Of a stretch of 64,000 nucleotides of DNA, positions 9,475 through 62,668 are shown piece by piece; positions within the stretch are counted from its first letter, which is position 1, and each line of letters opens with the position of its first letter. Below the pieces are notes generated by a model. The model did not search any database, was not told the DNA's origin, and worked only from the letters and a program-made list of their open reading frames with translations. A program made the position numbers and the translations under genes. The DNA comes from a virus, in IMG/VR virus record IMGVR_UViG_3300027749_000093, positions 8,428 through 72,427 of that record. One strand, 5' to 3'.

Positions 9475-9485
9475 AAATTAATATT

Positions 9486-11296: not shown

Positions 11297-11300
11297 TAAA

Positions 11301-12080: not shown

Positions 12081-12091
12081 TATAAGAACAA

Positions 12092-28052: not shown

Positions 28053-28056
28053 TCTT

Positions 28057-32148: not shown

Positions 32149-32150
32149 AT

Positions 32151-33742: not shown

Positions 33743-34368
33743 TACCATTACAACCAATACTAGAGAAATATAATATTAAACTTAATGGTGTTGCACATAT
33801 TGGCGCACATTGGGCGCAAGAGAATTCTACTTATATCGAATGCGGATGTAAGGAGTTTTTATATGTCGAACCTGTTAAACAAGCGTTTAATATTTTAGTA
33901 GAAAAGTTTAAGGATAACGATAATGTAATACTTAAAAACTTTGCAATAGGAAGTACTCCATCAATAGGGGTAATGTATGTTGATACCACAAATCAAGGGC
34001 AAAGCAATAGTTTATTAGAACCATTAGTACACCTAGAACAACACAAAGAAGTAATATTTAATGGAGAACCTGAAGTAGTAAAAGTTGTGACACTAGATTC
34101 ATTAAACATTTCTAAGAACTTGAACTTATTAATGATAGATACGCAAGGGTATGAATTAGAAGTTTTAAAAGGTTCTACTTCTGTATTGAATCAATTTGAT
34201 TTATTATATCTAGAAGTAAATAGGGAAGAAACATATAAAGGATGCCCTATGGTAGAAGAATTAGATGAGTTTTTAAAAGAATATAAATTTACAAGGGTAG
34301 AAACAAAATGGGCTTCTGACTACCATTCTTGGGGTGATGCAGTTTGGATTAAAAATAATTTGTTATGA
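33736..34368 (+). CDS. FkbM-family methyltransferase
   Basis: HIGAH...VEP...LMIDTQGYELEVLKG...LEVN...WGDAVW. Confidence 0.85.
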   Translation: MLIPLQPILEKYNIKLNGVAHIGAHWAQENSTYIECGCKEFLYVEPVKQAFNILVEKFKDNDNVILKNFAIGSTPSIGVMYVDTTNQGQSNSLLEPLVHLEQHKEVIFNGEPEVVKVVTLDSLNISKNLNLLMIDTQGYELEVLKGSTSVLNQFDLLYLEVNREETYKGCPMVEELDEFLKEYKFTRVETKWASDYHSWGDAVWIKNNLL

Positions 34369-35120
34369 TAGGTATTTATAAAATAACTTCTCCTAATAAT
34401 AAAATATATATAGGGCAAAGTATTGATATAGAAAATAGAGTTAAAAAAAATTATAGTAAAGGATTATGTAAAAATCAAATATTTCTTTATAATTCTATAA
34501 AAAAATATGGTTGGAATAATCATAAATTTGAAATAGTAAAAGAATGCATGATTAATGAATTAAATTATTTAGAAAAATTTTATATTAAATTTTATAATAG
34601 TTTTAATACAAAAAATGGATTAAATTTAAGAAGTGGTGGCAGTTCTACTTCTAAAGTATCAGAAATAACTAAAGAAAAAATGTCTAAATCTTGGGAAAAC
34701 GGGAAAAGGACAAATAAATCTAAAGAATTACATAATGCTGCAAGAAAAATAAATCAATATACAATAGATAATGTTTTTATAAGAACATGGGATTATATCT
34801 CTCAAGTAGAAAATGAATTAGGTTTTTATAGAAGCAATATATGTAAGGCTTGTAAAGGAAAATGTTATTCCGCATATGGTTATAGATGGTCGTATATAGA
34901 TGAAGAAAAAACATATAATACAATGCGTATGGGAATGAAACAAAGAATACCTGTTTATCAATATTCATTAAATGGAGAATTTATTAAAAAATGGGATTTT
35001 GTAAATGATGCTGCGATATATGTAAATGGAAGTGTTGTTGGTATAAATAAATGTTGTCATGGTATTTATAAAAAAGCATATAAATATATATGGTCTTTTA
35101 ATTTTAATCAAAAATCATAA
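34365..35120 (+). mobile_element. free-standing GIY-YIG homing endonuclease with two NUMOD1-like repeats
   Basis: GIYKITSPNNKIYIGQS; two copies of QY..DG/NG.FI..W...I..CC.G....AY.Y.W. Confidence 0.85.
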
Positions 35121-35123
35121 TTT

Positions 35124-35927
35124 ATGATTGACGTACCTGATTGGGCAAAACCTCAAATTTTTACTGTATATCCATACGAAAATTTATTAATTTTTGAAGA
35201 GTGGGTAATAATGCAATCATTGCCTGAAACCAATCGTGAATATCTACCTGTAATGTGGACATCTTATCAAGTAAATAATAATTATGGAAATGATGTAGAA
35301 GCACTAGTAAGACTTCAGAATTTTATAAACGAACTACCAAAGGACAAAAAGTATTGGACAATTGTTCAGTATGATGATGGTATTTTAGTAGATGTTTCAA
35401 GAATAGATTTGTTACAGTTTAGTATGAGTAAAAATATAGGTATTCCAATTCCTTTATTATCTATGCCACATTCTTATGTTCCCATTAAAGAAAAGAATTA
35501 CATCGCATCATTTATAGGCACACATACGCATCCAATAAGAGAAAAAATATTTAACATAACTAGCAAGGGTTATTACATATCTGATGCAGCACATAATACA
35601 AAAGAATTTTGTAAAATAATATCAGAGTCTGATTTTGGTTTGTGTCCTCGTGGATATGGACTTAATAGCTTTAGAATAGGGGAATGTATGCAGTATGGTA
35701 CAATACCGGTTTATATATCAGATGAGTTTGTTATACCACTCGATTTAGATTTCTCAGAATACGGGATATTAATACCTGAATGCGATGCTGATAACATTGA
35801 AAGAATACTGAAAAGTTACACCCCGTTGCAAATAATTGATATGCAAGATAAGTGTAAGCAAGTTTATCAAGAATATTATACATATGCAGGGGCTTTAAAC
35901 AAAATTATGAAATATCTTGAAATCTAA
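35124..35927 (+). CDS. exostosin-like (GT47) glycosyltransferase
   Basis: SFIGTHTHPIR...SDFGLCPRGYGLNSFRIGECMQYGTIPVYISD. Confidence 0.85.
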   Translation: MIDVPDWAKPQIFTVYPYENLLIFEEWVIMQSLPETNREYLPVMWTSYQVNNNYGNDVEALVRLQNFINELPKDKKYWTIVQYDDGILVDVSRIDLLQFSMSKNIGIPIPLLSMPHSYVPIKEKNYIASFIGTHTHPIREKIFNITSKGYYISDAAHNTKEFCKIISESDFGLCPRGYGLNSFRIGECMQYGTIPVYISDEFVIPLDLDFSEYGILIPECDADNIERILKSYTPLQIIDMQDKCKQVYQEYYTYAGALNKIMKYLEI

Positions 35928-36477
35928 TATTATTCATAGCATATATTATCAAGAACGATTACCTAGATTATTAAACGAATTGTCTAGTAATGGTATAACT
36001 GATTATGAATTATGGGAAGGTATAATTGACCAAAAGTCAAGTCAAAAAGGTATCAATCAAAGCCACAAACAAATAGTAGAATACGCACAATTAGCTAAGT
36101 GGGATGAGGTACTAATAATGGAAGATGATATTAGATTCTGTGGTGAAGGTTCATTTGAATATTTCTTACAAAACAAGCCTGAATCATTTGATATTTATTT
36201 AGCAGGCATTTACATGGGGGAAATACTACCTGATAATACGGTAAAAACATTCTCAGGACTTCATTGCTACATAGTACATTCTAAGTTCTATGAAAAGTTT
36301 TTATCTACACCAACCGATGCGCATATTGATAGGGCTTTATCTGAGTTAGGTGAGTTTAAAGTATGCAATCCTTTTGCTGCAATTCAATACAATGGATTCT
36401 CTTCAAACACTAGAAAAGAAGAAAATTATGATTATTTACTAAATAATCGGGAATTATATGGTAATTTTGTACTATAA
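35917..36477 (+). CDS. second GT25-like glycosyltransferase
   Basis: GINQSH...LIMEDD...FDIYLAG...GLHCYIV...HID. Confidence 0.75.
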   Translation: MKSNIIHSIYYQERLPRLLNELSSNGITDYELWEGIIDQKSSQKGINQSHKQIVEYAQLAKWDEVLIMEDDIRFCGEGSFEYFLQNKPESFDIYLAGIYMGEILPDNTVKTFSGLHCYIVHSKFYEKFLSTPTDAHIDRALSELGEFKVCNPFAAIQYNGFSSNTRKEENYDYLLNNRELYGNFVL

Positions 36478-36542: not shown

Positions 36543-38954
36543 TTGGCAGAGAACAATTTATACGGATACCCTGATTCACAAATAGACCCAAGGTTGAAAA
36601 ACTACGATTGGATTCTTCAATTTGTGAAAGCAGCATACTACGATAATAGAGGGTTTATTCCTTCTACACCTCTTAATTCAGGGCAATCAAAAATGCAGGA
36701 GATTAAGGAATATGCGCTTGGGCAACAAAGTATTAATAAGTACAAGAAAGAACTTCTTGCCGATGAGCAACAAGATACTACTTGGCAAGCAATAGATTGG
36801 ACACCTTTAGCATTATTACCTAAGTACAGGGAGATTGCTATTTCTAAGATGTTTCAAGAAAAATACGACATTCAAGCATTCGCAGTAGACCCATTAGCAA
36901 AAAGTGAAGAAGATGATTATTTTAACAAAATGAAGGTTAAGATAATGCTTCGTGAGGAAGCTATGAAAATGGGTGATGCAGGTAAAGAAATAGCAGACAA
37001 TCCTATCCTAAAGCCACAGCAAGGTGAACCACAGGACATGGAACAACTAGCTATGGAACAAAACTATGGCTACAAACACATCATGTCAATGGAAGCAGAA
37101 GAGTTAAATACTCTTATAATGCAACAAAATGATGGCGAAGAACTAAGAAAAAGAACTGTTGAATATTTATACGATTTTGGTATTGGTGGGTATACACAAT
37201 GGATTGATGAGAATGGCATGGTAAAAGTGAGGGAGATTAATCCTGAACAATTAGTAATGTCTTATTGTTCTAAAAATAACTTTTCTGATTTAACACATTG
37301 GGGAGAAATTATTGAAGTTTATGTAGGTGATTTAGCCCCATACTTTACAGAAGAACAACTAAAAACAATAGTACAAAGTGTAGCAGGTAAATATGGTAAC
37401 CCATCTAACTTTGCATATGGTGCTGACTTGTCTAAGTATTGGAACAGATTTAAAGTACTTGTATTAGACTTTAAATTCTTATCATGGAATACAACTTACT
37501 ACAAAAACGAAATTGACGGAAGAGGTAACACAAGATTTAATAAAACTAAGTTTCAAACAATTGGTGCTGATGGAATACTTAGAGATGAATATAAAGAACC
37601 ATTTGAAGAATCAGGTTATAAAGGAAGTGAAGACCCTAAGTTTATGGATATTACTAGAAAAGTAGTATACAAATGCAAGTGGCTTATCCAAACTAATTTC
37701 ATGTACGATTATGGTTTGTCCGAAAATATGGTTCGGAAGCCGTCATCATGGTGGGATACTACCTTAGATGTACAATTGTATTCATGGAACTTTTACAAAA
37801 TGAAGTTCTCAGGTATTACCGAAAGACTAATACCACTAGAAGACAAGGCTTGTTTGACATGGTATAAATTGCAGAATTTAACCAACAAACTTGTACCTTA
37901 TTTAATAAACTTGGATTTGACTGCTTTTGAAGGAGTAAACTTTGGTAAGGGTGGTGGAAATGCCACCCCATCAGAGATTATTGACTTCATCTTTACCAAC
38001 TTTGTTGTACCGCACAGAAGCCATGACTTATTAAGGCAGAACCCTAACTACAAACCTGTAAGTATTGAAGCTAGTGGACAATTAGCCCTATTTACTCAGT
38101 TGTATGAAGACTTAAACAATACTATCGCTATGATGCGACAAGTATCAGGTTTAAATGAAGTAACAGATGCTAGCACACCTAATTCTAAGAATCTTAATTC
38201 TACTAACGCAGCAGCAGTACAAAGTACAAACAATGCGTTATTTCTTATACAGAATGCTGACAAACAATTGATAGTAAAATTAGCTGATGCTAATATAGCA
38301 AAAGGACAGATAGCAGTTAAGTTAGGAAAGGTTTCAGGATACAGAAAAGCATTAGGACAGGAGACAGTAAGTTTCTTACAGATTAATCCTAATATATCTA
38401 ACCATGAATTTGGTATTTTCTTAGAAGATGCACCATCTGAAGAGCAAAGACAAATGTTTTGGCAAAACCTAAATAACAAAGAATATCAAGGACTAATAGA
38501 ACCTGAAGATAAAATACTTATAATGAGTGTTAGAAATCTTAAACAGGCAGATATTGTCTTAGCATATAGAATCAAAAAACGCAAAGAAGCAGCACAAGCA
38601 GCTAAAATGCAAGAGATTCAAGCACAACAACAAGGACAAGCGCAATTGCAAATGCAGGCTGAACAAATGAAGCAACAAACACTTCAAATGCAAAGTCAAT
38701 TAGCAATTCAACTTGAAAACTTGAAAGGAGAATGGCTTTGGAGAATAGAAAGCATGAAGAAAGAAAACGATGCCAACGAAGCACATATCCAAGCCCAAAG
38801 CAAAATAGTATCAAATCAAGTAATGGCAAAAGCTAAAACTGATTCAGCTAACATTGCAGCAGGTAGTCATATTACAGGTACACACATGAAAAACCAAGCC
38901 GATATGGCAATGACTGAAATAAGTAACGAAACCAAAAAACAAACCAAAAAATAA
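36543..38954 (+). CDS. portal protein (crAss-like)
   Basis: 803 aa; YALGQQSINKYK; IDWTPL; AVDP; SGLNEVTDAS; Gln-rich C-terminal coiled coil; between TerL and MCP. Confidence 0.85.
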   Translation: MAENNLYGYPDSQIDPRLKNYDWILQFVKAAYYDNRGFIPSTPLNSGQSKMQEIKEYALGQQSINKYKKELLADEQQDTTWQAIDWTPLALLPKYREIAISKMFQEKYDIQAFAVDPLAKSEEDDYFNKMKVKIMLREEAMKMGDAGKEIADNPILKPQQGEPQDMEQLAMEQNYGYKHIMSMEAEELNTLIMQQNDGEELRKRTVEYLYDFGIGGYTQWIDENGMVKVREINPEQLVMSYCSKNNFSDLTHWGEIIEVYVGDLAPYFTEEQLKTIVQSVAGKYGNPSNFAYGADLSKYWNRFKVLVLDFKFLSWNTTYYKNEIDGRGNTRFNKTKFQTIGADGILRDEYKEPFEESGYKGSEDPKFMDITRKVVYKCKWLIQTNFMYDYGLSENMVRKPSSWWDTTLDVQLYSWNFYKMKFSGITERLIPLEDKACLTWYKLQNLTNKLVPYLINLDLTAFEGVNFGKGGGNATPSEIIDFIFTNFVVPHRSHDLLRQNPNYKPVSIEASGQLALFTQLYEDLNNTIAMMRQVSGLNEVTDASTPNSKNLNSTNAAAVQSTNNALFLIQNADKQLIVKLADANIAKGQIAVKLGKVSGYRKALGQETVSFLQINPNISNHEFGIFLEDAPSEEQRQMFWQNLNNKEYQGLIEPEDKILIMSVRNLKQADIVLAYRIKKRKEAAQAAKMQEIQAQQQGQAQLQMQAEQMKQQTLQMQSQLAIQLENLKGEWLWRIESMKKENDANEAHIQAQSKIVSNQVMAKAKTDSANIAAGSHITGTHMKNQADMAMTEISNETKKQTKK

Positions 38955-43876: not shown

Positions 43877-46800
43877 ATGCGTAAAATACTTTTTTTTATA
43901 GTTTTTATTTTTATGTACTTTTTTGGGCAATCTCAATACGCACCAACTTCGGCTAAAACTAGATTTGTAAATGGTATTGGATTATCTACAAAAGATACCG
44001 CTAGTTTATCAAATGCAGGTGATACATTAGCAATGATTGTAGGAAAAGATAGTTTGGTTTATTTTAAATATAAAGGTTATTGGAAACCTATTGCATATAA
44101 TAGTTCTTTAAATTTTTATGTTAAATATAGTGACACCGCAACAATGTTAAGCAGTTATTATAATAAAACTGCTACCAATTCATTACTAAGTAACAAATTA
44201 AATATAAGTGATACAGCTAGTATGTTATCGGGGTATAAAACATATTACCCAAGAAATGCAATTAGCGGAGGAACAGGAATATCATATAATCCTAGTACGG
44301 GTGTTATTACTAATACCTCTAGCGGAACGGTTACAAGTGTGGCAACAAACAATGCAAGTGGAATTACAGGAGGAACAATTACAACTAGTGGAACTATTGC
44401 AGCAGATACTTCTATTCTTGCTACTAGATTAAGAGTTCAAAAAGGAATTGATTCAGTAAGTGCAAATGTCAATTTAAGGGTTATATATACTGACACATCT
44501 AGTATGCTATCGCCTTATTATCGAACCGCAACCGCAACTTCAGCACTAGCTTTAAAACTTAATATTAGCGATACAGCAGCAATGTTATCACCTTATGCAA
44601 GAAGTGCAGTTGGCGGTTATGTTCCGTACACAGGTGCAACAAGTAATGTAAATTTAGGTACTAAAAATATTTACGCAAACGCAATATACACGGGATTTAG
44701 TGCTATTACGGCATCGGGTACACAAGTTGTGTTAACGGTCAATTCAGCACCCGAAATTTTAGTAAGCGGAAGCGGTGGGCAAACTATAAAACTACCCGAT
44801 GCAACTACTTTACAAAACGGAACAACTTATAGTTTTAATAACAACCAAAGTAGTGGGGCAATAACAATAAATAATAACTCTAACACATTAGTAGTTTCTA
44901 TCCCATCGGGCGGATATGCCGAGGTTATTTTATTAGATAATTCAATTGCTGCGGGTAGTTGGGATAGACACTTCCAAGCACCCGCAAACGTAAGTTGGAG
45001 TACAAATACTTTTGACTATCCGGGTTCTATAACATCGGCTACTTGGAATGGTTCTACTATTGCAATTAATAGGGGCGGAACAGGCGCAACAACGGCAAGC
45101 GCAGCATTAACTAATTTGGGTGGGTTATCGATTAGCGACACGGCTACAATGCTATCACCATACATAAGAACGGCAAACTATGGGTTAACTAAAACAGGTC
45201 AAGGATTAGGGGTTGATACTGCTTTAATCGCTACAAGATTAAGAGTGCAAAAGGGGATTGATTCGTTGGCTAGTGTTGTAACGGGTGGTTACGTTCCATA
45301 CACAGGAGCAACAGGAGCAGTTAATTTAGGGGCTTATGGGTTAACATCAAGCGATATATTAGTTAGTAAAAATCAAAATGCAGAAACAAAGAGTACAATA
45401 TCTAACACAACTGCAGGTACAGGTTCAGGAAGTAAATTAAGATTAATATCTGAGTCTACAACTGCAGGGGAAGGTTCACTTGCTAAATTTTCAGGAAGTT
45501 ACACACCTTATAAAACTATTGGAGCAGGTGATTTAGTTTTATATAATACTACTGCAGGTAATATTACTATTTTAAATGATAAAATTAATAAAAATATAAA
45601 CTTTGCAGCAGGTGGTGTATCTACTGCTCAAGCAACATTATTTAGCACAGGAAACTTTGCCATAGGTTCTACTACGGATGATGGGAGCAATCAGTTACAG
45701 GTAACGGGGAGTAGTAAGTTTACGGGTAATGTTACAACAGATGGAACATTTGCAAGTAATTCTGCAACACTTTTAACAAATGGAACAACAGGTGGTGTTT
45801 CTATAACATCAACTAATAATAGAGTTAGAATAAATGGAGGAGTAGATGTTAGTGTAACTAATTTATCCGCAATTTCAGGAAGTTTAAATATTAAAAACGC
45901 ACCTGCAGGTGCTGTTAGTAGCACAGGTTCATTAATAGATGTATTAGCAACTATAAATGGTGGGGCATCAGCAGGTATTGCAAATGTATTAAATTTATCT
46001 TCTCCTCAATCAACACAAGCAAGTGGAGATATGAGGATAATTAATATATCTCCAACATTTACAAAAGATGCAGGTACAGGGGTGTCATTTAGAGGTATTT
46101 ATTATAATCCAAATATTTCGGGTTTAACAAGTGGATTTACTCATAATGCTTATGAAAATACATCGGGAAATGTCTTATTAGGTACAACTAGTGGAAGCAC
46201 AGGAATAGGAGCAACAAGTACAATTAACGCATCTGCTATTTTACAAGTAACAAGCACAACACAAGGGATATTACCACCTAGAATGACCACTACACAAAGA
46301 GATGCAATATCATCACCTGCAACGGGTTTACAAGTATATAATACAACAACAAACACTAATGACTTTTACAATGGTACTGCTTGGGCTAGTGGTGCATCAG
46401 GTACTTACGTTACATCCGTTACAGGAACTTCACCAATAGTTTCTAGCGGTGGAACTACTCCTGCTATTTCTATACCTGTGGCTACTACTTCGGTAAGTGG
46501 ATATTTAAGTAGTACGGATTGGACTACTTTTAATAATAAACAAGCGGCATTAACAAACCCCGTTACAGGTACAGGTACTACTAACTACCTACCTAAATTT
46601 ACAGGTGCAAGTACAATAGGGAATAGTGCAATTACTGATGATGGTACTACTGTTACTTTAAATAGTAGAGCATTGAGTGGAACAAGTGCAAGTTTTAGTG
46701 GAGGAATAAATTTTACAGGAACTCTTGGTTCTAGTTCACCATTAACTATAATACAATCATCGTATGCGGGTGGGGGAAATTCAGCTACAAAAATTGTAGT

Positions 46801-49123
46801 TTATAATCCGTTTAATGGACTTGATTCTAGGCTTGGAATGAGTGTAATGAATACATCAGGTAGTTTTGTAGAATTAATAAGACTTGATGGTTCTACATCA
46901 ATAACTAATATTTATGGTGCATTAAGTGGAACAAGTGCTACATTCTCTAGTAGTGTACAATCTACAAATATTGGAGTAGGTTATGCTCCGCAATCAAATA
47001 TTGGAGCATTTATTTATAGAAACGCATCTGATTATGCATTAGCAGTTCAACAAGATGGTTCAGGTGTACCATTTCAAGTAACAAGCGGTGCAGTAATTAG
47101 ATTGTATGTCGCTAATGGAGGAAATGTAGGTATAAATACAACAAGTCCTTCTTACTTACTAGATGTTAATGGTACAGGAAGGTTTAGTGGGATATTAACT
47201 ACAAGTGGCGGTAGAGTAACTATTCAAGGCACTAATCAAAATGCAGTATGGTTTAATCAAAATGGAGGGGGTACAAGTACAGGTTATTTAGTAGGTAGAA
47301 GTTATTCATCAGACGATGCAAATGATTTCTTTATTTATAATGTAGCAACTTCAACAAGAAATTTAGCCATATCCTCAACAGGAGCAGCTACATTTAGTAG
47401 TAGTATTAATAATTTAGGATTAAATGCTGCCCCTACTTCAACAGGTACAGGAGTTTCTTATTTACAATTTAGAAATACAGGGAATGATTTTTATATAGGA
47501 AATGAAAGTAGTACGGCAGGAGGATTCTTTACAGGCTCTAGTGCTTATGCAAGTGTTTTATATAGTAGTACGGCACAAGAATTTATAATAGGAGGAGTAA
47601 GAAGATTACAAATAGCTACTACAGGAGCAGCTACATTCTCTAGTAGTGTAACGGCAGGTAGTATTACTGCAAATGGTACAGGATATTCAATCTTTCAAGG
47701 TAGTGCATATCTGCAAACTCCTGCATCAACAGGATTATCTTTTGGTTGGAATAGAAGTGGTGGCAATGGTGAGGCAACAATAGTTTGGGGAGCAGCCGCA
47801 GCAGGATATAATTTTGAGATTGCAAGTGTATTAAGTGGAACAATTACTCCAAGACTTACTATATTAACAACAGGTGCTGCCACATTTTCAAGTTCAGTTA
47901 CCGCAACATCATTTATAAAAACAAGTGGCACATCTGCTCAAATATTAGCTGCGGATGGTTCGGTTATTACCGCAGGAGCAAACATTACAATAAGTGGAGG
48001 TACAATATCATCAAGTGGAGTTTCAATAACATTATCTGCAATTGGTTCAACTCCTAATGCTAATGCTGCGACATTAACAGGTTCAGCATTAAATTTAGAA
48101 CCTGCATCTGCATCATTTGGTGGTGTGGTTACAACAGGAACACAAACATTTGCAGGTACTAAAACATTTAGTTCAACTACTGCACAAGTAGTAACAATAA
48201 GAGGAACAAGTGGAGGTGGCACAAATAATTCACAATTAAGATTTTATGGTTCTGCTTCAGCTGCTGATTTATGGGCAATAGGAAGTGAAGTTGCAACAGG
48301 TACAAGTGGAACTGCATTTGATTTTTATAGTATAGCAGGTGCAGCAAATAGATTAAGAATAGATGGAAGTGGTAATGTAGGAATCGGAACAATTACAATC
48401 GGTTCTACATTACAAGTCAATGGTAACGCTGCAATCGGTTATTCAGCAAGTACAGCAGGACCTACTAATGGTCTAGCCGTTGCAGGTGGTGTAACAATAG
48501 GAACTACAACAGACGCAGGATACAAACTAGATGTTAATGGTACAGGAAGGTTTAGTGGTGCATTGAGTGGAACTACTGCTACATTCTCTAGTAGTGTTAA
48601 TGCAGCACAATTAAGTTTAACAGGAACTTTACCATCGGGTAATGTTGCGTTTTATTTAAGTTCAACCATAGGAACACCATCTCCAATCGGAATGTATTTA
48701 GCCCCTAATTATACAACTGCAGGAACAAGTACAATGACTGATTTTACAATTCAAGCAAGTAGTGATAATGGGACAAGAACAACATCAATACATAATGCAT
48801 TAGTAATTAATGATATTGTTAAAGGAACAGGACATACAATTACTGATAATTATGGATTAATAATCAATAACATAGCAGCAGGAACAAATAATACTGCACT
48901 TGCAGTAGGCATGGGGTTAAGTCAATTTCTTGATAAAATTGAATTATCAAGTACTTTAAAATTAGGAGCATATTCAGTATCAGGATTACCTACGGCAGGT
49001 ACGGCAGGTAGAATTGCTTATGTTACCGATGCACTTGCGCCTACATATAATGCAACTGTAGTTGGTGGTGGTTCTGTGAAAACTTTAGTATTTGATAACG
49101 GAACTAATTGGACAGTACATTAA
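43877..49123 (+). CDS. long fibre/adhesin protein with N-terminal signal peptide
   Basis: 1748 aa, Gly/Thr/Ser-rich; repeats SDTAxMLSPY, GYVPYTGAT, TGAATFSSSV, GNVGIGT. Confidence 0.75.
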   Translation: MRKILFFIVFIFMYFFGQSQYAPTSAKTRFVNGIGLSTKDTASLSNAGDTLAMIVGKDSLVYFKYKGYWKPIAYNSSLNFYVKYSDTATMLSSYYNKTATNSLLSNKLNISDTASMLSGYKTYYPRNAISGGTGISYNPSTGVITNTSSGTVTSVATNNASGITGGTITTSGTIAADTSILATRLRVQKGIDSVSANVNLRVIYTDTSSMLSPYYRTATATSALALKLNISDTAAMLSPYARSAVGGYVPYTGATSNVNLGTKNIYANAIYTGFSAITASGTQVVLTVNSAPEILVSGSGGQTIKLPDATTLQNGTTYSFNNNQSSGAITINNNSNTLVVSIPSGGYAEVILLDNSIAAGSWDRHFQAPANVSWSTNTFDYPGSITSATWNGSTIAINRGGTGATTASAALTNLGGLSISDTATMLSPYIRTANYGLTKTGQGLGVDTALIATRLRVQKGIDSLASVVTGGYVPYTGATGAVNLGAYGLTSSDILVSKNQNAETKSTISNTTAGTGSGSKLRLISESTTAGEGSLAKFSGSYTPYKTIGAGDLVLYNTTAGNITILNDKINKNINFAAGGVSTAQATLFSTGNFAIGSTTDDGSNQLQVTGSSKFTGNVTTDGTFASNSATLLTNGTTGGVSITSTNNRVRINGGVDVSVTNLSAISGSLNIKNAPAGAVSSTGSLIDVLATINGGASAGIANVLNLSSPQSTQASGDMRIINISPTFTKDAGTGVSFRGIYYNPNISGLTSGFTHNAYENTSGNVLLGTTSGSTGIGATSTINASAILQVTSTTQGILPPRMTTTQRDAISSPATGLQVYNTTTNTNDFYNGTAWASGASGTYVTSVTGTSPIVSSGGTTPAISIPVATTSVSGYLSSTDWTTFNNKQAALTNPVTGTGTTNYLPKFTGASTIGNSAITDDGTTVTLNSRALSGTSASFSGGINFTGTLGSSSPLTIIQSSYAGGGNSATKIVVYNPFNGLDSRLGMSVMNTSGSFVELIRLDGSTSITNIYGALSGTSATFSSSVQSTNIGVGYAPQSNIGAFIYRNASDYALAVQQDGSGVPFQVTSGAVIRLYVANGGNVGINTTSPSYLLDVNGTGRFSGILTTSGGRVTIQGTNQNAVWFNQNGGGTSTGYLVGRSYSSDDANDFFIYNVATSTRNLAISSTGAATFSSSINNLGLNAAPTSTGTGVSYLQFRNTGNDFYIGNESSTAGGFFTGSSAYASVLYSSTAQEFIIGGVRRLQIATTGAATFSSSVTAGSITANGTGYSIFQGSAYLQTPASTGLSFGWNRSGGNGEATIVWGAAAAGYNFEIASVLSGTITPRLTILTTGAATFSSSVTATSFIKTSGTSAQILAADGSVITAGANITISGGTISSSGVSITLSAIGSTPNANAATLTGSALNLEPASASFGGVVTTGTQTFAGTKTFSSTTAQVVTIRGTSGGGTNNSQLRFYGSASAADLWAIGSEVATGTSGTAFDFYSIAGAANRLRIDGSGNVGIGTITIGSTLQVNGNAAIGYSASTAGPTNGLAVAGGVTIGTTTDAGYKLDVNGTGRFSGALSGTTATFSSSVNAAQLSLTGTLPSGNVAFYLSSTIGTPSPIGMYLAPNYTTAGTSTMTDFTIQASSDNGTRTTSIHNALVINDIVKGTGHTITDNYGLIINNIAAGTNNTALAVGMGLSQFLDKIELSSTLKLGAYSVSGLPTAGTAGRIAYVTDALAPTYNATVVGGGSVKTLVFDNGTNWTVH

Positions 49124-49134
49124 TAAATTAATTT

Positions 49135-49446
49135 ATGTTATACTTAATATTAGCAGCAATATTTAACGCAATGATGGATACACTTACGCATCACTTTGAT
49201 ACTAGCGTATTTAAGGGCTTAAACCCTAAGTGGTGGAATCCTAATGTGTCGTGGCAATACAACAATAATTTTCTAGGAATTGTACGTTTAGATGCGTGGC
49301 ATTTGGCTAAGTTTGGGATGATAGGTTCAATTTGTATGGCTATGATTTCTTACCATCAAATTTTGGGAAATTTTAGTATATTTGTATTGCCGATAATTTG
49401 GTCGGTAACATTTGAAACATTTTATAAACTATTAAGAAAACCATGA
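49135..49446 (+). CDS. small membrane protein
   Basis: hydrophobic segments; SW..K/Y...DAWHLAK motif. Confidence 0.6.
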   Translation: MLYLILAAIFNAMMDTLTHHFDTSVFKGLNPKWWNPNVSWQYNNNFLGIVRLDAWHLAKFGMIGSICMAMISYHQILGNFSIFVLPIIWSVTFETFYKLLRKP

Positions 49447-49688
49447 AAAAAACAATCGCAACCATCGCAATCGTAAGTCTTTTAGCATTTACCGCAGACA
49501 AGTTTATTACGATTAAGTTTACTGAACCACAAATTAACTACCATTGGCAAACATTAAACAACATTAAAGCATTGGTAGACAAATCAGAGATGCCGCATAC
49601 GCAAGTTCAGTACATTGTAAAGGGTATCGATTCATTACAACACGACATTCAATTGTCGGCTAAAATTGATTCAACATCTAAAAAATAA
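49443..49688 (+). CDS. small exported protein
   Basis: MKKTIATIAIVSLLAF signal-like N-terminus. Confidence 0.55.
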   Translation: MKKTIATIAIVSLLAFTADKFITIKFTEPQINYHWQTLNNIKALVDKSEMPHTQVQYIVKGIDSLQHDIQLSAKIDSTSKK

Positions 49689-49691
49689 AAT

Positions 49692-50075
49692 ATGAAACAT
49701 TTATTTATTGCACTTTTACTTTTGCCTTTTGCAGCATTTGCACAAATTGGAAATATTACACAAGACACAACCGTAGTTAATGGTGATACTGTTTATTATA
49801 CGCATGGTGCTGCTTTAATTAACCCATGTATTGTAAATGCCAAAGGCGATACTGCTTATAGTCTTACATGGAGTGCATTTGGCTTAAATCAAGCAGGAGG
49901 TAGTTGTAATACTTATGTTGTATTACATGACAAAAAGAATGCACAAGTAGCTGACTTTAATCAACTTATTCCTGCTGATGTAGTAGCAGTATGGGGAGTA
50001 GATTCTGCACCCGTAACTGATTACATTTTGTTTATGAATAAGCGGTTTATCAAGTACACGGCTAAATCAAAATAA
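49692..50075 (+). CDS. exported protein
   Basis: MKHLFIALLLLPFAAFA/Q Sec signal peptide. Confidence 0.6.
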   Translation: MKHLFIALLLLPFAAFAQIGNITQDTTVVNGDTVYYTHGAALINPCIVNAKGDTAYSLTWSAFGLNQAGGSCNTYVVLHDKKNAQVADFNQLIPADVVAVWGVDSAPVTDYILFMNKRFIKYTAKSK

Positions 50076-50095
50076 AACCTTATATTTGGTACATA

Positions 50096-51016
50096 ATGAG
50101 ATTAATAACTTTTATATGTGTTTTGTTTTTTGCGTTATCAATTAATGCACAAACTCAATATCCTCGTGGGTTACCATCTCCATCATCAAATGGGTACATT
50201 AAAGAAGGTTATACTCAAATTGATAGCGGTATTATTACCAATGTCAGAGATACATTCCTTGCAAAGTACCCTACGTTAATTAAATGGTCAGGTAATAATA
50301 AATACTACTATACCAACGGGAATGGTACTGCATGGTATCCGCTTACAACTAATGCTACTATATTTTCTGTAAATTCAGGATGGGGATTAGTAAAAGTAAA
50401 TGATTCTACTTTAAAGGCAGATACATCTATCAATGGTGTAGCTACATGGGCTTTACTGAAAAAGAAAATAGATAGCATAGGTGCATTAAAGGTTAATTAT
50501 ACCGATACCGCATCTATGCTTTCTCATTATATCCGTACAGGTTCAGCCGGAACTGTTACATCTGTAGCTACAGGATTTGGTTTGTTAGGAGGAACAATAA
50601 CTACTACAGGTACACTTAAAGCAGATACATCTAATGGAGGGCTTACTACATGGGCTTTGACTAAAAAGAAAGTTGATAGTCTTGGTGCAGTAAAAGTAAA
50701 CATAGCAGACACCGCTTCCATGCTTACACCATATGTACGCAAATCTTCTACAAATTCTATTTTATATTCGGGTTCAGTAAACGTAGGTAATATTGTTACG
50801 GGTGGGGTTAATATAACCGTTACATTTCCATCTGCGCTAAGTACATCATCTTATTTTATCCTAGGCAGTATTGTAAGCAATGGAACTCCTGAATTAGATG
50901 CTACCGTTTTATGGGTTATTACAAACAGAAGTACAACAAGTTTTACTATACATTTTAGGGAGGATGCAGAAGTAGCACAAAACATAGCATTTGAATATAT
51001 TTTATTTGCAAAATAA
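50096..51016 (+). CDS. short fibre-like exported protein
   Basis: signal MRLITFICVLFFALSINA/Q; DTASML and GTVTSVAT repeats shared with long fibre; C-terminal beta domain. Confidence 0.65.
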   Translation: MRLITFICVLFFALSINAQTQYPRGLPSPSSNGYIKEGYTQIDSGIITNVRDTFLAKYPTLIKWSGNNKYYYTNGNGTAWYPLTTNATIFSVNSGWGLVKVNDSTLKADTSINGVATWALLKKKIDSIGALKVNYTDTASMLSHYIRTGSAGTVTSVATGFGLLGGTITTTGTLKADTSNGGLTTWALTKKKVDSLGAVKVNIADTASMLTPYVRKSSTNSILYSGSVNVGNIVTGGVNITVTFPSALSTSSYFILGSIVSNGTPELDATVLWVITNRSTTSFTIHFREDAEVAQNIAFEYILFAK

Positions 51017-51022
51017 TTAAAG

Positions 51023-51274
51023 ATGGAACAAGGCTTACCGCAAAAAAGAAGATTAGGAATAACACAAGGGGAACTTGCAGGGGTTGCAATACTTGTCGTA
51101 GGCGCAATATTGATGTTTTGGAAAACAACCGATGTGAGATTATCAGCATTAGAAATTCGTCTTAATGGACAGGATAAAATGCAAGAACAAATTAATACAA
51201 AACTAGACAAGCTACAAGAAAGCATTAATACTGTCAACTTAACATTAAAAGATAAGGTTGATAAAAAACAATAA
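51023..51274 (+). CDS. single-TM coiled-coil protein (holin/antiholin-like)
   Basis: one TM helix plus coiled coil, in lysis cluster. Confidence 0.5.
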   Translation: MEQGLPQKRRLGITQGELAGVAILVVGAILMFWKTTDVRLSALEIRLNGQDKMQEQINTKLDKLQESINTVNLTLKDKVDKKQ

Positions 51275-51291
51275 CAATTAAAACTACAATT

Positions 51292-51432
51292 ATGATTCAA
51301 TTCATTACAGACAACAAAGCAGCCCTTTTAGGTGCAGCACTAGCAATCAGCGAAGTACTTGCTTCTATCCCATCGGTTAAAGCAAATAGTTTATTTCAAT
51401 TAATTTTCGGTTGGCTAAGTAAAAAACCATAG
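51292..51432 (+). CDS. putative holin (46 aa, not in ORF track)
   Basis: MIQFITDNKAALLGAALAISEVLASIPSVKANSLFQLIFGWLSKKP. Confidence 0.55.
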   Translation: MIQFITDNKAALLGAALAISEVLASIPSVKANSLFQLIFGWLSKKP

Positions 51433-51433: not shown

Positions 51434-52009
51434 ATGAAATACCTTATAGTATTTATTCTCATCTTGTCCTGTAACCCACAAAAAAGGATAGCTAGACAAG
51501 ATGAGAAAGCTATTAACTATGTATCTGCAAAAAAACCATTGCTAGATAGACTAACACCAATCGTATTAGCTATACATCCATGCGTTACAGAAGTAGTACG
51601 AACAGATAGCATAACTACATACGTTACAGATACTATAACACAAAGAATAAACGTACCCTACTCTGTATACAAAAACAAGGTACTTGATACAATTATAAAC
51701 AACATATCTATTTTTGCTGATTCAACTACCATAATGCTTAAATACTTAGGTTCAGTAAAGATTCAAACAAATACGGTTTTTAAGACGATTAAAGACGAGT
51801 CAGAGTTAAATCGATACAAAGACACACTAATTGTATTTAAGGTCAAGGAAGGGCAGTATATAGGGCAAATAAAGCAATTGCAGGATGATGTAATGGTTGC
51901 GGATAAGGGAAAAGACACATGGTTAAGAAACTTTTGGGTATTACTTGTATCTATGATATCAATTCAAATGCTTTTGTTGTACTTTAAATTAAAGAAAGGA
52001 AAACTATAA
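51434..52009 (+). CDS. putative unimolecular spanin
   Basis: lipoprotein signal MKYLIVFILILSC plus C-terminal TM helix ending in basic residues. Confidence 0.65.
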   Translation: MKYLIVFILILSCNPQKRIARQDEKAINYVSAKKPLLDRLTPIVLAIHPCVTEVVRTDSITTYVTDTITQRINVPYSVYKNKVLDTIINNISIFADSTTIMLKYLGSVKIQTNTVFKTIKDESELNRYKDTLIVFKVKEGQYIGQIKQLQDDVMVADKGKDTWLRNFWVLLVSMISIQMLLLYFKLKKGKL

Positions 52010-52521
52010 TGACAAAAAATTATTACACAGAATTCCTTGAGATAGAATACAAAAAAACATCTATCGATATGCCTACAGTAGTAGTATATGCTAAGACATT
52101 AGTGGGTAAGTACGATAAGGAGGTTGTAAGGGCTGCGTATTGTTGTTTCAGAAATGAAAGCGGTAATGGTAAGAATGGAGTCAACGGAAATTTTTCAGGA
52201 ATTCAAGCAGACCAAGCTAAGTGGGAAGGATTAGATTTAACCAACGTAATAGGCACATCAGTTAAGAAAGATAATTTTGGAGATGTAAGGAGATTCCTTT
52301 GCTTTAATGAGAAGGGATACCAAGCCTGTTTTGAATTTCTTTGTTATAAGTTCAAACAACGTGGTGTTTATATTGGCGCAGAAAATATTGAAGATTCTAA
52401 TAAATTAGCACTAGCCTATCTTACTAAATGGGTGGGCTTGTCGGCTAAAGATGCAGCAACGAAAACTGAAGACATAACCAACTTTAAGAGTTTATACAAA
52501 AGCAGTATAACCGCAATATAA
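52009..52521 (+). CDS. putative lysozyme-fold endolysin (glucosaminidase-like)
   Basis: RNESGNG...NGNFSGIQ...RRFLCF; last gene of lysis cluster. Confidence 0.55.
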   Translation: MTKNYYTEFLEIEYKKTSIDMPTVVVYAKTLVGKYDKEVVRAAYCCFRNESGNGKNGVNGNFSGIQADQAKWEGLDLTNVIGTSVKKDNFGDVRRFLCFNEKGYQACFEFLCYKFKQRGVYIGAENIEDSNKLALAYLTKWVGLSAKDAATKTEDITNFKSLYKSSITAI

Positions 52522-52574
52522 TTAAAGATTGTTTTCGTTTTTTTCGTGTGTTCATGGTTTATTGGTAGTGAAAA

Positions 52575-52608
52575 TGCCCCCGAAGTGGTTATCGGGGGTA
52601 TCTTTTTT
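52575..52608. terminator. terminator between convergent late and early operons
   Basis: TGCCCCCGA-AGTGGTTA-TCGGGGGTA, T-tract downstream and A-tract upstream. Confidence 0.7.
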
Positions 52609-59288: not shown

Positions 59289-59969
59289 TATTTATTGATG
59301 TTTTTTTAAAAAAAGTATATGCTTTAACATTTCTTTCACATATACAGGTATGTAAATCGCTGAAACCCTTGCTACCATTGACTTTCATCAATTTAACACA
59401 TTTATGCAACAATGTTGCAAAACCTCAAGGTTGCCCTAACTCCGACCTTCCCTAGTAGTAACCTTACATTACATTAGATGGTCTAGAATCGCCTTCTAAA
59501 TCGTTTTACCTCCCACCTACCCATAACTACCCTAATAACACCAAATCCCCGTACAAACAGACAAACCATAAAACCACCCCAAATCACCCCTATAAAAACA
59601 CAAGGCATACAATCACCCTACTTTAAAAAGATATGGCAAGGAAGCCTACTTAGAATCGCATATATATAACCTATCGCCTATCCCATCTGTCTAAGCACCC
59701 CACCCCACCCCAAAACCAAAAGTGAAATCGAAATCTAGGCATAGCCCTATCGCCCAATTCCTAGTTCCCCTTTGGGCTGCCGCCCCCCACGTTTATTGCG
59801 TGACACCCCCAAGACACCTAGCTGTTATTTTTGTTAAATAGGATTGGGATTTTATTTTGGTATGTTTTTTTTATTTTTTACAGGGTGGTTTTGTGATTTG
59901 CGAATTGCGAATTAAAAGGTTTTTTGTGATTTATGGATTTGTTGTATCTTTAGGAATTAAAATTTGTTT

Positions 59970-60167
59970 ATGGCAATGATGATGCATGAAAGTTTACATA
60001 AAAAAATTGAGAAGGCTAAGAGTAAGCATATGATGAAGAGGGCAGATGGTTCAAGTTCTCCTCGTGGATTATGGGATAATATTCGTGCCAATAAAGGAAG
60101 TGGTAAAGAGCCAACTGCTGAAATGTTGAAACAAGAAAAAAAGATTAAGGCACAAGAAAAAATGTAA
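59970..60167 (+). CDS. small basic phage protein
   Basis: GLWDNIRANKGSGKEPT motif. Confidence 0.6.
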   Translation: MAMMMHESLHKKIEKAKSKHMMKRADGSSSPRGLWDNIRANKGSGKEPTAEMLKQEKKIKAQEKM

Positions 60168-60170
60168 TTT

Positions 60171-60455
60171 ATGTCGGAAGCTTGGGAAAGAAAAGAAGGA
60201 AAAAATCCTTCAGGTGGCTTAAACCAAAAAGGTCGTGATTCATATAATCATTCTCATGGAGGTCATTTAAAAGCACCTGTTAAAAGCGGAGTTAATCCTC
60301 GTAGAGTTTCTTTTGCAGCTAGATTTTCAGGTATGGTAGGTGCTATGAAAAAACCTAATGGTGAACCAACAAGGAAAGCATTAGCTTTAAAAGCATGGGG
60401 ATTCGGAAGTATTGTAGCTGCTCGTAACTTTGCAAATGCACATAAAAAATCTTAA
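60171..60455 (+). CDS. small basic phage protein (DUF6321-like)
   Basis: AWERKEGKNPSGGLNQKGR...LKAPV...RRVSFAARFSGM. Confidence 0.7.
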   Translation: MSEAWERKEGKNPSGGLNQKGRDSYNHSHGGHLKAPVKSGVNPRRVSFAARFSGMVGAMKKPNGEPTRKALALKAWGFGSIVAARNFANAHKKS

Positions 60456-60475
60456 AATATTAAAAAAAAATAATT

Positions 60476-60799
60476 ATGGGAATGTTAATGGATAACGAAG
60501 CAGATGAAACTTTACAACAAAAGATTGAGAAAGTTAAGGCGAAAAAAACTATGGTTAAGACTGAAACAGGTAAGACTTCGACTCCTGAAAAAGCGGCTAG
60601 TGATAAACGTGACTTTGAAATGGGTATGCAGAAGCAATGGGAGTCTAGGGGTAAAGAAGATTTAAAAAATAGAATTGACAAGGCTAAAAAACTTCAAATG
60701 ATTGATAGGGCATCTAAGAAAACTAAAATGCTTATGGATGCAAAAGCCAAAGGCACAGCGATGCTTGACGAAGACGAAGAAGATAGCGATATGGCATAG
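60476..60799 (+). CDS. Lys/Met-rich hypothetical protein
   Basis: 107-aa charged ORF. Confidence 0.55.
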   Translation: MGMLMDNEADETLQQKIEKVKAKKTMVKTETGKTSTPEKAASDKRDFEMGMQKQWESRGKEDLKNRIDKAKKLQMIDRASKKTKMLMDAKAKGTAMLDEDEEDSDMA

Positions 60800-60978
60800 T
60801 CATAATGTTTTGTTAAAATAGTATTTAACTTTTTTTATTGTAATTTATTTTAGGTCTATTTGCCTAAATGATTATTATGAAAAAAGTTATTTGCGTTTTT
60901 AGGATAATGTATTTTATCCTTTGCTGCATTGTATTATCACCATTAATAATTTATTCACTAACTAAAAAAAAATAAACC

Positions 60979-61179
60979 ATGGACAGTTTTTTTAATTTAA
61001 CATCAGAAATAGAAAAAGAGTTAGCAATTGTTGCAGACAGAGTAGATACAATGTGTGTCTTTTGGGATGCACTTGTTTCAGAAAATGAAATAGTTTATAT
61101 GGATGATAAGCTAAGACTAGAGTCTAAAAAAATTTACGAATCTATTATTAAATTTCAAAAATTATTAGAATGCATATAG
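60979..61179 (+). CDS. hypothetical protein
   Basis: ORF overlapping the next gene. Confidence 0.55.
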   Translation: MDSFFNLTSEIEKELAIVADRVDTMCVFWDALVSENEIVYMDDKLRLESKKIYESIIKFQKLLECI

Positions 61180-61832
61180 ATGAACAATTAAATTATGGAA
61201 ATGATATATTTAAATCGATATCAGATGCTGTTTCTTTAGAAGATTATAAACTTGCTAACTCAATCATTCAAAATACACAACCACCTAAAGAATGGGTAAA
61301 AGAATATAAGTCTTTAATAAAAGAAGGCGATACCTATAAGACTATTAAGATTGAATTGCTTGAAGCTATTGCCAAAAAAATATATGGTTATTGGGGGATT
61401 GACAAAATAGACAAACCAATAATTATATCTGACAAATCAGGTAAGGTTTGTATCACAGTAAAAGCATCATTAATAATCAGACATTTGGATGGCATCAATC
61501 ATATCTTCTACGAAGGACTTGCTTCAGAAGTAGCATCAAGCATAGCACTTATGCCATTGGTTACAGGAAAGGTTATAGCATCTTGTAAGAAGGCTTGCTT
61601 TAAACAGATAGGAGACTTATTTGGTAGGTCGTTATCTAGGGGATTTGATGAAGGTGAATTGCCTGAAATGCAGATAGAAAACGAATCACCTGATAGAAAG
61701 TTATCAAGACTAATATCATTGATTAGCGATTGCCAAACAGAAGATGAATTAAAGTCTTATAAGATAATTGCTGCAACTAATGAACTAACTAAGAAACAAT
61801 ACGAATTAAAACTAAAACAAATTAAACCATGA
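61170..61832 (+). CDS. putative single-strand annealing protein (Rad52/Sak-like)
   Basis: paired with exonuclease; ...KKACFKQIGDLFGRSL; C-terminal ISDCQTEDELK helix. Confidence 0.55.
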   Translation: MHIDEQLNYGNDIFKSISDAVSLEDYKLANSIIQNTQPPKEWVKEYKSLIKEGDTYKTIKIELLEAIAKKIYGYWGIDKIDKPIIISDKSGKVCITVKASLIIRHLDGINHIFYEGLASEVASSIALMPLVTGKVIASCKKACFKQIGDLFGRSLSRGFDEGELPEMQIENESPDRKLSRLISLISDCQTEDELKSYKIIAATNELTKKQYELKLKQIKP

Positions 61833-62572: not shown

Positions 62573-62597
62573 TTAACAATTTAATTTAAAAATTATT

Positions 62598-62628
62598 AAA
62601 TCTCACCCTAAAAAGTGGGATTTTTTTA
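62598..62628 (+). terminator. intrinsic terminator
   Basis: AAATCTCAC-CCTAAAAA-GTGGGATTT followed by T-tract. Confidence 0.7.
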
Positions 62629-62668
62629 TTATAAGTATTTTAAGTATATTTGAGTAAAATAAGTATAT

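Follow-up and report, generated by a model that had tools for sequence, protein, structure and literature searches.

Predicted signal peptides and Asp-Ser/Thr motifs in putative tail fibres of an uncultured short-tailed virus

The structural proteins of tailed phages are taken to fold and to assemble in the cytoplasm. A virus genome from IMG/VR (record IMGVR_UViG_3300027749_000093) raises the question whether this also applies to its tail fibres. The window, i.e., the whole stretch of DNA that was analyzed, comprises 64,000 bases (bases 8428-72427 of the 72,427-base record), and its region from 43877 to 51016 contains genes for two putative tail fibres and for small neighbours, the N-termini of which resemble signal peptides. 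The original prediction, made from the sequence, held that the fibres are exported to the periplasm, are O-glycosylated there at Asp residues followed by Ser or Thr (D-S/T), and are then either added to virions at lysis or displayed on the host surface. In the present analysis export via Sec and signal peptidase I was strongly supported in silico, and the fibres probably mature in the periplasm and not in the cytoplasm, as judged from the sequences. It is proposed that the proteins of 1748 and 306 residues are receptor-binding tail fibres, and that the proteins of 81, 127 and 61 residues are small companions.

Signal peptides in the fibre region

The features of the region are listed below in window coordinates. 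Here and throughout, a slash before Q or C in a motif marks the predicted cleavage site.

43877-49123, plus strand: putative tail-fibre protein of 1748 residues, predicted Sec preprotein, in the fibre slot
43877-43933, plus strand: predicted signal peptide of the fibre, residues 1-19, MRKILFFIVFIFMYFFGQS, followed by Gln20
43934-45286, plus strand: sequon-rich proximal third of the fibre, residues 20-470
44687-45061, plus strand: fibre residues 271-395, a domain in common with signal-less phage fibres
45287-49123, plus strand: distal shaft and tip of the fibre, residues 471-1748, sequon-poor
49135-49446, plus strand: protein of 103 residues with several hydrophobic stretches, likely a membrane protein, no family match
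49443-49688, plus strand: predicted exported protein of 81 residues, signal MKKTIATIAIVSLLAFTA, no Gln at +1
49692-50075, plus strand: predicted exported protein of 127 residues, cleavage site AFA/Q18, conserved companion of fibre genes
50096-51016, plus strand: putative short fibre of 306 residues, with signal (1-18), INA/Q19, N-domain, two DTASML-repeat stalk modules and C-terminal knob
50753-51016, plus strand: C-terminal knob of the 306-residue protein, residues 220-306, predicted lectin-like receptor-binding fold
51434-52009, plus strand: lipoprotein of 191 residues, lipobox ILS/C13, C-terminal membrane helix
57350-57535, minus strand: predicted exported protein of 61 residues, both Asp in sequons (DSV, DTT), outside the range of the original prediction

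A set of 104 open reading frames (ORFs) was obtained by greedy longest-ORF calls over the whole record. Their N-termini were ranked with a home-made score, not with SignalP, which considers the most hydrophobic N-terminal 10-residue stretch, its charges and the charge before it. Six of the 104 ORFs had a classical signal-peptide N-terminus, and a gap in the score separated them from the remainder. The 61-residue protein ranked first, the 1748-residue fibre second and the 191-residue lipoprotein third, and the other three were the 306-, 127- and 81-residue proteins. In all six the best 10-residue stretch had a Kyte-Doolittle mean of 2.74-3.61 and was uncharged, and the net charge before it was positive. 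The four ORFs for which signal-like N-termini had been predicted were thus all recovered, each with a positive n-region, an uncharged hydrophobic stretch and then small residues. The observation was confirmed and extends further, because the 191-residue lipoprotein and the 61-residue protein were added. As predicted, Gln stands at +1 in three of the four, i.e., in the fibre (FFGQS/Q, with GQS/Q20), in the 306-residue protein (INA/Q19) and in the 127-residue protein (AFA/Q18), and it is missing from this position in the 81- and 61-residue proteins. Gln at +1 is described as a mark of signal peptidase I substrates of Bacteroidota that is linked to stability (PMC5837995, PMC10653852), and the pattern as specific to Bacteroidota (PMC5837995).

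A stored gene call of the fibre (P0042, 1736 residues) begins at Met13, inside the signal (window 43877-43915), and signals of this sort can thus be hidden by automatic gene callers. The same signal is found in the homologues P0043, P0045, P0048, P0058 and P0061.

The conservation of the signals was followed in relatives. With the capsid protein as query, seven related viral contigs were obtained (53-81% identity), and the order portal, scaffold, capsid, three small genes and fibre is kept in six of them (L004-L009), while L010 ends upstream of the slot. Signal-bearing proteins occupy the slot in L004, in L005 with its near-twin L006, and in L009, in which one start had been called wrongly, an internal Met being the first residue of the signal. 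In the sister lineage L007 and its near-twin L008, the capsid protein of which is 72% identical, the same slot contains a protein of 1474 residues without signal. Signals are therefore kept in three of four distinct related lineages.

With the first 470 residues of the fibre as query, 750 long homologues (E up to 0.001) were found among 8000 scored candidates, and the best 120 of the 750 were examined. After removal of the window's own protein, of sequences without a Met start and of those with the same first 40 residues, 93 homologues were left. A signal was present in 30 of these, and all 30 had [AGSCT]-Gln at positions 17-25, compared with 10 of the 63 signal-less homologues at the same place. 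Peptidase_S74 or PTL_trimer domains occurred in both classes, which thus both appear to be usual phage fibres that differ in how they start.

A signal that stays uncleaved would have another meaning. In this case a signal-anchor would hold the fibres on the periplasmic side of the inner membrane up to lysis, or else maturation of the particles would take place at the membrane. The h-region of the fibre is indeed very hydrophobic and aromatic (IL FFIVFIFMYFF), the c-region GQS is less canonical than AxA, and tethering would keep the fibres concentrated for docking. However, in 30 of 30 signal-bearing homologues Gln stands behind a small residue at positions 17-25, which is the signature of cleaved signal peptidase I substrates (PMC5837995, PMC10653852), and the sites of the 306-residue protein (INA/Q) and of the 127-residue protein (AFA/Q) are classical, so that a permanent anchor appears improbable and removal of the signal is the favored reading.

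Asp-Ser/Thr motifs and the DTAxMLxxY repeat

Bacteroidota possess a system that attaches glycans to Ser or Thr residues next to a preceding Asp in non-cytoplasmic proteins, and in most cases L, I, V, T, A, S or M stands in third place; its sites are near-fully substituted, and engineered motifs and foreign proteins are also glycosylated (PMC12871550). Sequons were defined as D-[ST]-[LIVTASM], and expected numbers were derived from 5000 shuffles within each mature protein. The counts in the original prediction proved to be exact. The first nine Asp of the fibre, at positions 40, 49, 58, 86, 112, 177, 192, 206 and 232, are all D-S/T (DTA, DTL, DSL, DTA, DTA, DTS, DSV, DTS and DTA), and the same is true for 9 of the 11 Asp of the 306-residue protein and for four of the eight Asp of the 127-residue protein (DTT, DTV, DTA and DSA). 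The comparison with the other ORFs gave a clear result as well. In the five smaller signal-bearing proteins 23 of 38 Asp are D-S/T versus 123 of 1119 in all the others, the fibre being left out (Fisher p 1e-12).

The shuffles led to the same result for the single proteins. Residues 23-470 of the fibre have 12 D-S/T among 16 Asp, and all 12 are full sequons versus 2.55 expected, a number that was reached in 0 of 5000 shuffles. The 306-residue protein has 7 sequons versus 1.49 expected (again 0 of 5000), the 127-residue protein 4 versus 0.51 (P 0.0008), the 191-residue lipoprotein 5 versus 0.82 (P 0.0008; 6 of 12 Asp are D-S/T) and the 61-residue protein 2 versus 0.11 (P 0.002; both of its Asp). 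The effect was weak for the 81-residue protein, with 2 sequons versus 0.34 expected (P 0.034; 2 of 5 Asp).

The proximal fibre contains an N-domain, five SDTAxMLSxY repeats and two ADTSILATRLRVQKGIDS modules, and 7 of its 12 sites lie inside these repeats (five in the former, two in the latter). These seven are thus not independent events. The D-S/T sites that had been counted as separate sequons are real, but their independence has to be tempered, because most belong to one repeat family. In the distal fibre (residues 471-1748) D-S/T is found at only 1 of 37 Asp, and 0 sequons were observed versus 6.07 expected. An interpretation of this depletion as avoidance of glycosylation was dropped. 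The signal-less L008 fibres are equally depleted (5 of 56 and 0 of 9 Asp), and the distal depletion is therefore uninformative in this respect.

In the window and its relatives (L006 and L007 left out as near-duplicates), 105 of 292 Asp are D-S/T in 16 signal-bearing proteins, versus 23% expected from composition, and 269 of 2569 in the 154 other proteins (Mann-Whitney p 4e-8). The 1474-residue protein in the slot of L007 and L008 showed no enrichment. Among the long homologues, D-S/T accounted for 862 of 1767 Asp in the 30 proteins with signal (48.8%; 25.6% expected from composition) and for 495 of 2750 in the 63 without (18%). Thus, the enrichment tracks the signal in the window, in its relatives and in the homologues.

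A baseline was taken from bacterial repeat loci after removal of the repeat proteins, membrane proteins, proteins of fewer than 100 residues and borderline scores. In these Bacteroidota loci D-S/T made up 123 of 1066 Asp in 57 exported proteins and 312 of 2700 in 156 others (11.5% versus 11.6%). Exported bacterial proteins are therefore not enriched, and export does not in general go along with the enrichment that the phage proteins show. With Gln at +1 and D-(S/T)-(L/I/V/T/A/S/M) motifs the window proteins resemble the substrates of signal peptidase I and of the O-glycosylation system of Bacteroidota; these substrates are cellular, in contrast, and the motif density in the window proteins is far above that of ordinary exported proteins.

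The DTAxMLxxY repeat is also tied to the signal. It was present in 28 of the 30 signal-bearing homologues, but in only 4 of the 63 signal-less ones, and at least three of these four begin inside the repeat or inside the signal and thus look truncated. Among repeat instances anchored on ML..Y in phage and metagenome proteins, 519 of 520 were preceded by D-T. No family for the repeat was found in Pfam, PHROGs or NCBIfam or by sequence search of the PDB. In 185,579 species genomes 94 stretches matched a degenerate DNA pattern of the repeat. Lone matches (Lachnospiraceae and others) fit the chance number of about 35 that we estimated by our own arithmetic, and arrays of up to 46 repeats per protein were found in Chitinophagaceae, Pedobacter, Pelobium, Rurimicrobium, Hanamia and Ginsengibacter. 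As seen by eye and without a tally, most of the bacterial repeat proteins that look complete start with a signal and A/Q. Chromosomal loci of Chitinophagaceae, Pedobacter and Pelobium (L014, L022, L034, L039, L078 and others) encode signal-bearing repeat proteins of 800-3700 residues, which have a conserved ...DRIQFDYFY end and are flanked by small signal-bearing proteins. The neighbours of the repeat gene in Pedobacter and Pelobium are presumably housekeeping genes, as far as their N-terminal sequences tell. Because signal-bearing arrays exist in bacteria, the repeat is taken to be an export-associated module of the phylum that phage fibres have in common with cellular proteins. The tie between signal and repeat is a compact handle on an O-glycosylation machinery that is still incompletely known.

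Fibre-like nature, virion and host envelope

The 306-residue protein shows the modular pattern of receptor-binding proteins. It has 41 homologues with a conserved N-domain after the signal, in which Q19, D43-S44 and R51-D52-T53 are invariant (9 sequences), and with differing C-terminal parts; its own last 90 residues are also found on P0010, P0011 and P0014, which bear no signal. In 185,579 species genomes a search for the N-domain gave 51 pattern matches and no relative, and the domain thus seems to be confined to uncultured phages. An AlphaFold2 model was confident only at residues 220-306 (predicted local distance difference test, pLDDT, 83-91). The best structural match of this knob was the tip of the R1 pyocin tail fibre (6cxb_A, Z 10.1, root-mean-square deviation 2.7 over 87 residues), followed by H-type lectins and C-domains of phage tailspikes (Z 7.5-8.9), on a scale on which the best Z without a true match is typically 7-8. 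The likeness to the pyocin and tailspike tips 6cxb, 6cu2, 7eea and 4ru4 (Z 10.1 to 6.4) is one of fold alone, with at most 23% identity. To our knowledge, the receptor-binding tips of R-type pyocins and tailspikes have no signal peptides. The 127-residue protein has 28 homologues, and in an alignment of 17 of them the signal, Gln18, D25-T26, D32-T33 and D53-T54 are invariant. In four homologues the length of the longest contig is the same as for homologues of the fibre or of the 306-residue protein, which suggests that they lie on the same contigs. The AlphaFold2 model of this protein was of low confidence (mean pLDDT 53.7).

The long fibre is linked to classical fibres by its slot and by its domains. 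The 1474-residue protein of L007 and L008 matches 21 PHROGs, 11 of which are tail-fibre families, and residues 896-926 and 1076-1512 of the window fibre are homologous to the L008 fibre (1076-1512 at 30% identity), which stands in the same genomic slot. Signal-less S74/PTL_trimer fibres (L008; P0114, annotated as 'intramolecular chaperone auto-processing domain containing protein') share the 271-395 domain, a motif at 888-928 and the shaft at 1076-1512 with it; they differ in that they lack the DTAxML repeat and have the low D-S/T fraction of signal-less homologues (18% versus 48.8%). Signal-less homologues match residues 271-395 at 65-85% identity. In deposited phages only two short matches for the fibre were found, with residues 271-395 being 42% identical to a 'chaperone of endosialidase' (MW202753). 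No family was found for the fibre or for the 306-, 127-, 81-, 191- and 170-residue proteins in Pfam, PHROGs, NCBIfam and sequence searches of the PDB, and none of the fibre-region proteins of the window had a family in Pfam, PHROG or NCBIfam above threshold; the 81-residue protein had a weak match to phrog_30835 (function unknown). The protein Atlas gave low-score leads only (head fibre, PTL_trimer and Mtd_N at 0.85-0.86). The idea that an upstream protein of 171 residues is the fibre anchor and occurs fused to fibres in P0139, P0152 and P0153 was rejected (BLASTP E 0.78, hhalign probability 0.2).

A cultured analogue is the Cellulophaga phage phi18:3 of the Pachyviridae (NC_021794.1). Like the window phage, it falls in the broad group of Flavobacteriia podophages (portal 23% identical). 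Its gp085, gp086 and gp087 are three adjacent late proteins of 547-785 residues, encoded just upstream of the lysis genes, and each has a signal followed by Gln (GYS/Q, VSA/Q and LNA/Q). In the GenBank annotation they are structural or tail proteins, 'based on experimental MS/MS proteomics analysis', and gp087 has an N-terminal match to a tail-fibre PHROG. The DTAxML repeat is missing from them, and a discussion of their signals was not found in the literature. The phi38:1 tail fibres bear no signal. In L105, of another phage type, a baseplate-hub gene (phrog_4930, E 2e-31) and two small genes are followed by the genes of four signal-bearing proteins and then by the lysis genes; two of the four proteins are long and resemble fibres, and for one the start lies within the called ORF.

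Literature on tailed-phage fibres that bear signals or are glycosylated by the host was searched for and none was found, bioRxiv supplements and subscription journals lying outside the search. In the review on O-glycosylation the word 'phage' occurs 0 times (PMC12871550), and a phage origin of fibre-like proteins has even been argued from their missing signal peptides (PMC6199706). The window adds a natural contrast inside one phage lineage, the tie between signal and repeat, and the baseline.

Exported fibres could also have a function other than in virions. They could act in the envelope of the infected cell, e.g., mask or bind the receptor glycan, so that superinfection is prevented or progeny are kept from being lost on debris. 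Alternatively, they could ride vesicles as adhesins. Export, which is the best supported step, would be the same, and the tail module encodes other candidates for host contact, namely a structural protein of 1141 residues and a protein of 157 residues with a 'short tail fiber' match. Chromosomes of Chitinophagaceae and Sphingobacteriaceae encode the giant signal-bearing DTAxMLxxY proteins, next to genes that look like housekeeping genes. Bdellovibrio provides a precedent of exported adhesins with 21 tail-fibre-like proteins that have a signal peptide and a conserved domain and act outside the cytoplasm (PMC10769870). The MAT fibres of Bdellovibrio bacteriovorus have the same architecture as the window fibres, i.e., signal, conserved domain and variable trimer with or without S74 chaperone, and show that fibres can mature outside the cytoplasm (PMC10769870). 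They are encoded by a cell of another phylum, serve prey recognition and are likened here by architecture alone. We know of no link between them and O-glycosylation sequons. Prophages of P. gingivalis encode proteins of unknown function with Gln-exposing signals as in the window, which were read by the authors as modifiers of the host envelope and are not fibres (PMC10367356).

Several results speak against a role in the envelope. The genes lie in a late structural operon, at the slot of the signal-less fibre of the sister lineage and with domains in common. Their evolution is of the receptor-binding type, with a constant N-domain, swapped C-termini and a knob that is also found on signal-less proteins. 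A protein of 1748 residues would be a costly decoy, and signal-bearing proteins of phi18:3 were reported from virions, according to the GenBank annotation. A means to reach the surface was also missing, i.e., neither a type IX secretion domain nor a fibre lipobox was found. The C-termini of the fibre and of the 306-, 127- and 81-residue proteins matched no family of any sort in Pfam or NCBIfam at E up to 0.01, type IX sorting domains included, a family search that a very divergent domain could escape. The parts of the original prediction fared differently. Export via Sec and signal peptidase I is strongly supported by the conserved signals and by Gln in 30 of 30 homologues, but display on the host surface found no support, and a role in the envelope without a place in the virion is rather unlikely. 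Addition of the fibres to virions at lysis remains the preferred reading and is plausible by analogy, namely from the synteny with the signal-less fibre and from gp085-gp087 of phi18:3.

The points that weigh against exported, glycosylated virion fibres are the following. We know of no case that explains in what way a long trimeric fibre would reach its particle once the cell has lysed. The signal-peptide calls were made with our own heuristic and not with SignalP, and the baseline was drawn from loci of Chitinophagia and Sphingobacteriia and not from the host's class. Over its whole length the fibre is not enriched (13 of 53 D-S/T versus 14.8 expected). The proteins gp085-gp087 of phi18:3 have no detectable sequence similarity to the window fibres and are sequon-poor (locus L106, 8014-13706), with 1, 1 and 2 sequons versus 4.6, 3.8 and 3.8 expected from shuffles, and are thus below expectation, in contrast to the signal-bearing proteins of the window, which are above it. 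Finally, the D-T of the repeat is nearly invariant, with 516 Thr versus 3 Ser, compared with a slight preference for Ser at Bacteroidota glycosites (PMC12871550), and in the AlphaFold2 model a short helix begins with DTASML, in a stretch of low confidence. The near-invariant Thr and the predicted helix start allow a purely structural reading, in which the D-T motif could be kept for structure.

Taken to its end, this would mean that there is no export at all, that the fibres fold in the cytoplasm as usual, that the D-T motifs are merely a structural repeat, and that the true start of the fibre may be Met13. The stored call P0042 starts there, which removes the signal, the D-T of the repeat may cap a helix in the model, and the distal fibre is devoid of sequons. 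In contrast, the full signal is kept in homologues, including those that have no internal Met, and the small residue-Gln signature was found in 30 of 30. The repeat is nearly absent from signal-less fibres, and the enrichment was also observed in the 127-, 191-, 61- and 81-residue proteins, which have no repeat, so that it is not a repeat effect there. Purely cytoplasmic fibres are therefore very improbable.

On balance we lean towards exported and glycosylated fibres that join the particles at lysis as the best explanation of the results as a whole. The putative lysis region, which follows the fibre genes directly, contains in addition to the lipoprotein:

51023-51432, plus strand: two small membrane proteins of 83 and 46 residues, candidates for holin-type proteins
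52009-52601, plus strand: protein of 170 residues at the endolysin position, followed by a terminator

Fibre genes, small exported proteins, the two membrane proteins, the lipoprotein and the 170-residue gene form one late unit, which ends at a terminator-like hairpin for both strands (52574-52601). The 83- and 46-residue proteins have hydrophobic stretches and no family match in Pfam and PHROGs, and from their place before the lipoprotein gene they are candidate holin-type lysis proteins. The 191-residue lipoprotein would be a one-piece spanin, as suggested by architecture and position. The 170-residue protein (52009-52521) had no match in Pfam, PHROG or NCBIfam and may be a lysin of undescribed type; the gene at its place in L006 has a beginning that we take to be lysozyme-like. 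The phi38:1 lipoprotein gp084 has D-S/T at 4 of 4 Asp, compared with 6 of 12 in the lipoprotein of the window, and glycosylation may extend to the periplasmic lysis proteins of these phages.

For the preferred reading, a sequence of steps can be proposed, in which cleavage, glycosylation, and the time and place of docking are what we infer. The fibres and the companions of 81, 127 and 61 residues would be made as Sec preproteins, host signal peptidase I would cut them, and Gln would become the new N-terminus of three proteins. The fibres would fold and trimerise in the periplasm. Glycosylation would be expected, because the proteins are exported and the host chemistry acts on such motifs (PMC12871550); the general O-glycosylation system of the host would load glycans on D-(S/T)-x sites, which in the long fibre would be concentrated in the virion-proximal repeat region. 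Fibreless particles would be built in the cytoplasm. The fibres would wait in the periplasm and would meet the particles once the holin opens the inner membrane, before or during breakage of the envelope by the lipoprotein spanin and the lysin.

The phage, its host and the consequences

Further features of the window were assigned by PHROG matches:

9984-15517: virion structural proteins
15517-15990: short-tail-fibre-like protein
28018-30090: large terminase
36543-38954: portal

The window has a G+C content of about 31%. Near-identity searches and protein searches revealed no near relatives among deposited phage records, and searches of these records with the region, the capsid protein, the 306-residue protein and P0010 gave no match. 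The portal had 87 matches in deposited phage records at 21-26% identity, with Flavobacterium (68), Cellulophaga (15), Tenacibaculum (2) and Maribacter (1) as hosts, and with one uncultured record. Every match with a named host is thus a phage of Flavobacteriia, and by these matches the phage is an uncultured short-tailed virus that is distantly related to Flavobacteriia podophages, and its host is most likely a member of the Bacteroidota.

A sugar-modification cluster lies between terminase and portal (30090-36477). It encodes GT25, GT2 and GT11 (fucosyltransferase type) proteins, two methyltransferases, an NAD-dependent epimerase/dehydratase and a GT47-like protein, and a GIY-YIG/NUMOD1 homing-endonuclease-like gene (34365-35120) is inserted in it. 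Similar sugar-modification genes are present in the relatives, including those with signal-less fibres. The possibility that this glycosyltransferase cluster serves the exported fibres is thereby weakened, because it is not tied to fibres with signals.

Several further observations concern other parts of the record. At least its first 4000 bases are the perfect reverse complement of the last, and mismatches begin between 4000 and 4500. The duplication, which covers about 59600-64000 in the window, doubles nine ORFs, among them one for a RusA-like resolvase, and could be a genuine long inverted terminal repeat or else a fold-back that arose in the assembly. An ORF of 3073 codons in the tail module (18254-27475) had no family match, and giant structural proteins of phi38:1 and phi18:3 are found at the matching place. 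At 8040-9980 the window encodes two homologues of Cpn10 (GroES), one of which is the C-terminal part of a protein of 287 residues, and a ferritin-like protein, and phi18:3 likewise has two annotated GroES genes.

A wider generalization is offered tentatively, as a possibility that we hold to be somewhat short of even. A large class of Bacteroidota phages may complete its virions outside the cytoplasm, with fibres that would be secreted via Sec, capped by pyroglutamate, folded in the periplasm with the aid of small secreted companions and coated with host O-glycans, partly on a DTAxMLxxY glycan-carrier repeat that they would have in common with giant chromosomal surface proteins, and that would dock onto particles still lacking fibres only in the brief time between holin triggering and rupture of the outer membrane. 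If this is true, such fibres may be given a wrong start or a wrong label in automatic gene calling and annotation. The virion would carry a sugar coat made by the host, and glycosylation enzymes of its own would not be needed. Host range would be set by secretion and glycosylation of the host in addition to the receptor, and host-type glycans on virions would matter for their stability, for how other cells recognize them and for attempts to engineer phages for Bacteroidota. If the fibres are exported and glycosylated, the rule that tailed-phage structural proteins fold and assemble in the cytoplasm would fail for a broad group of Bacteroidota phages.

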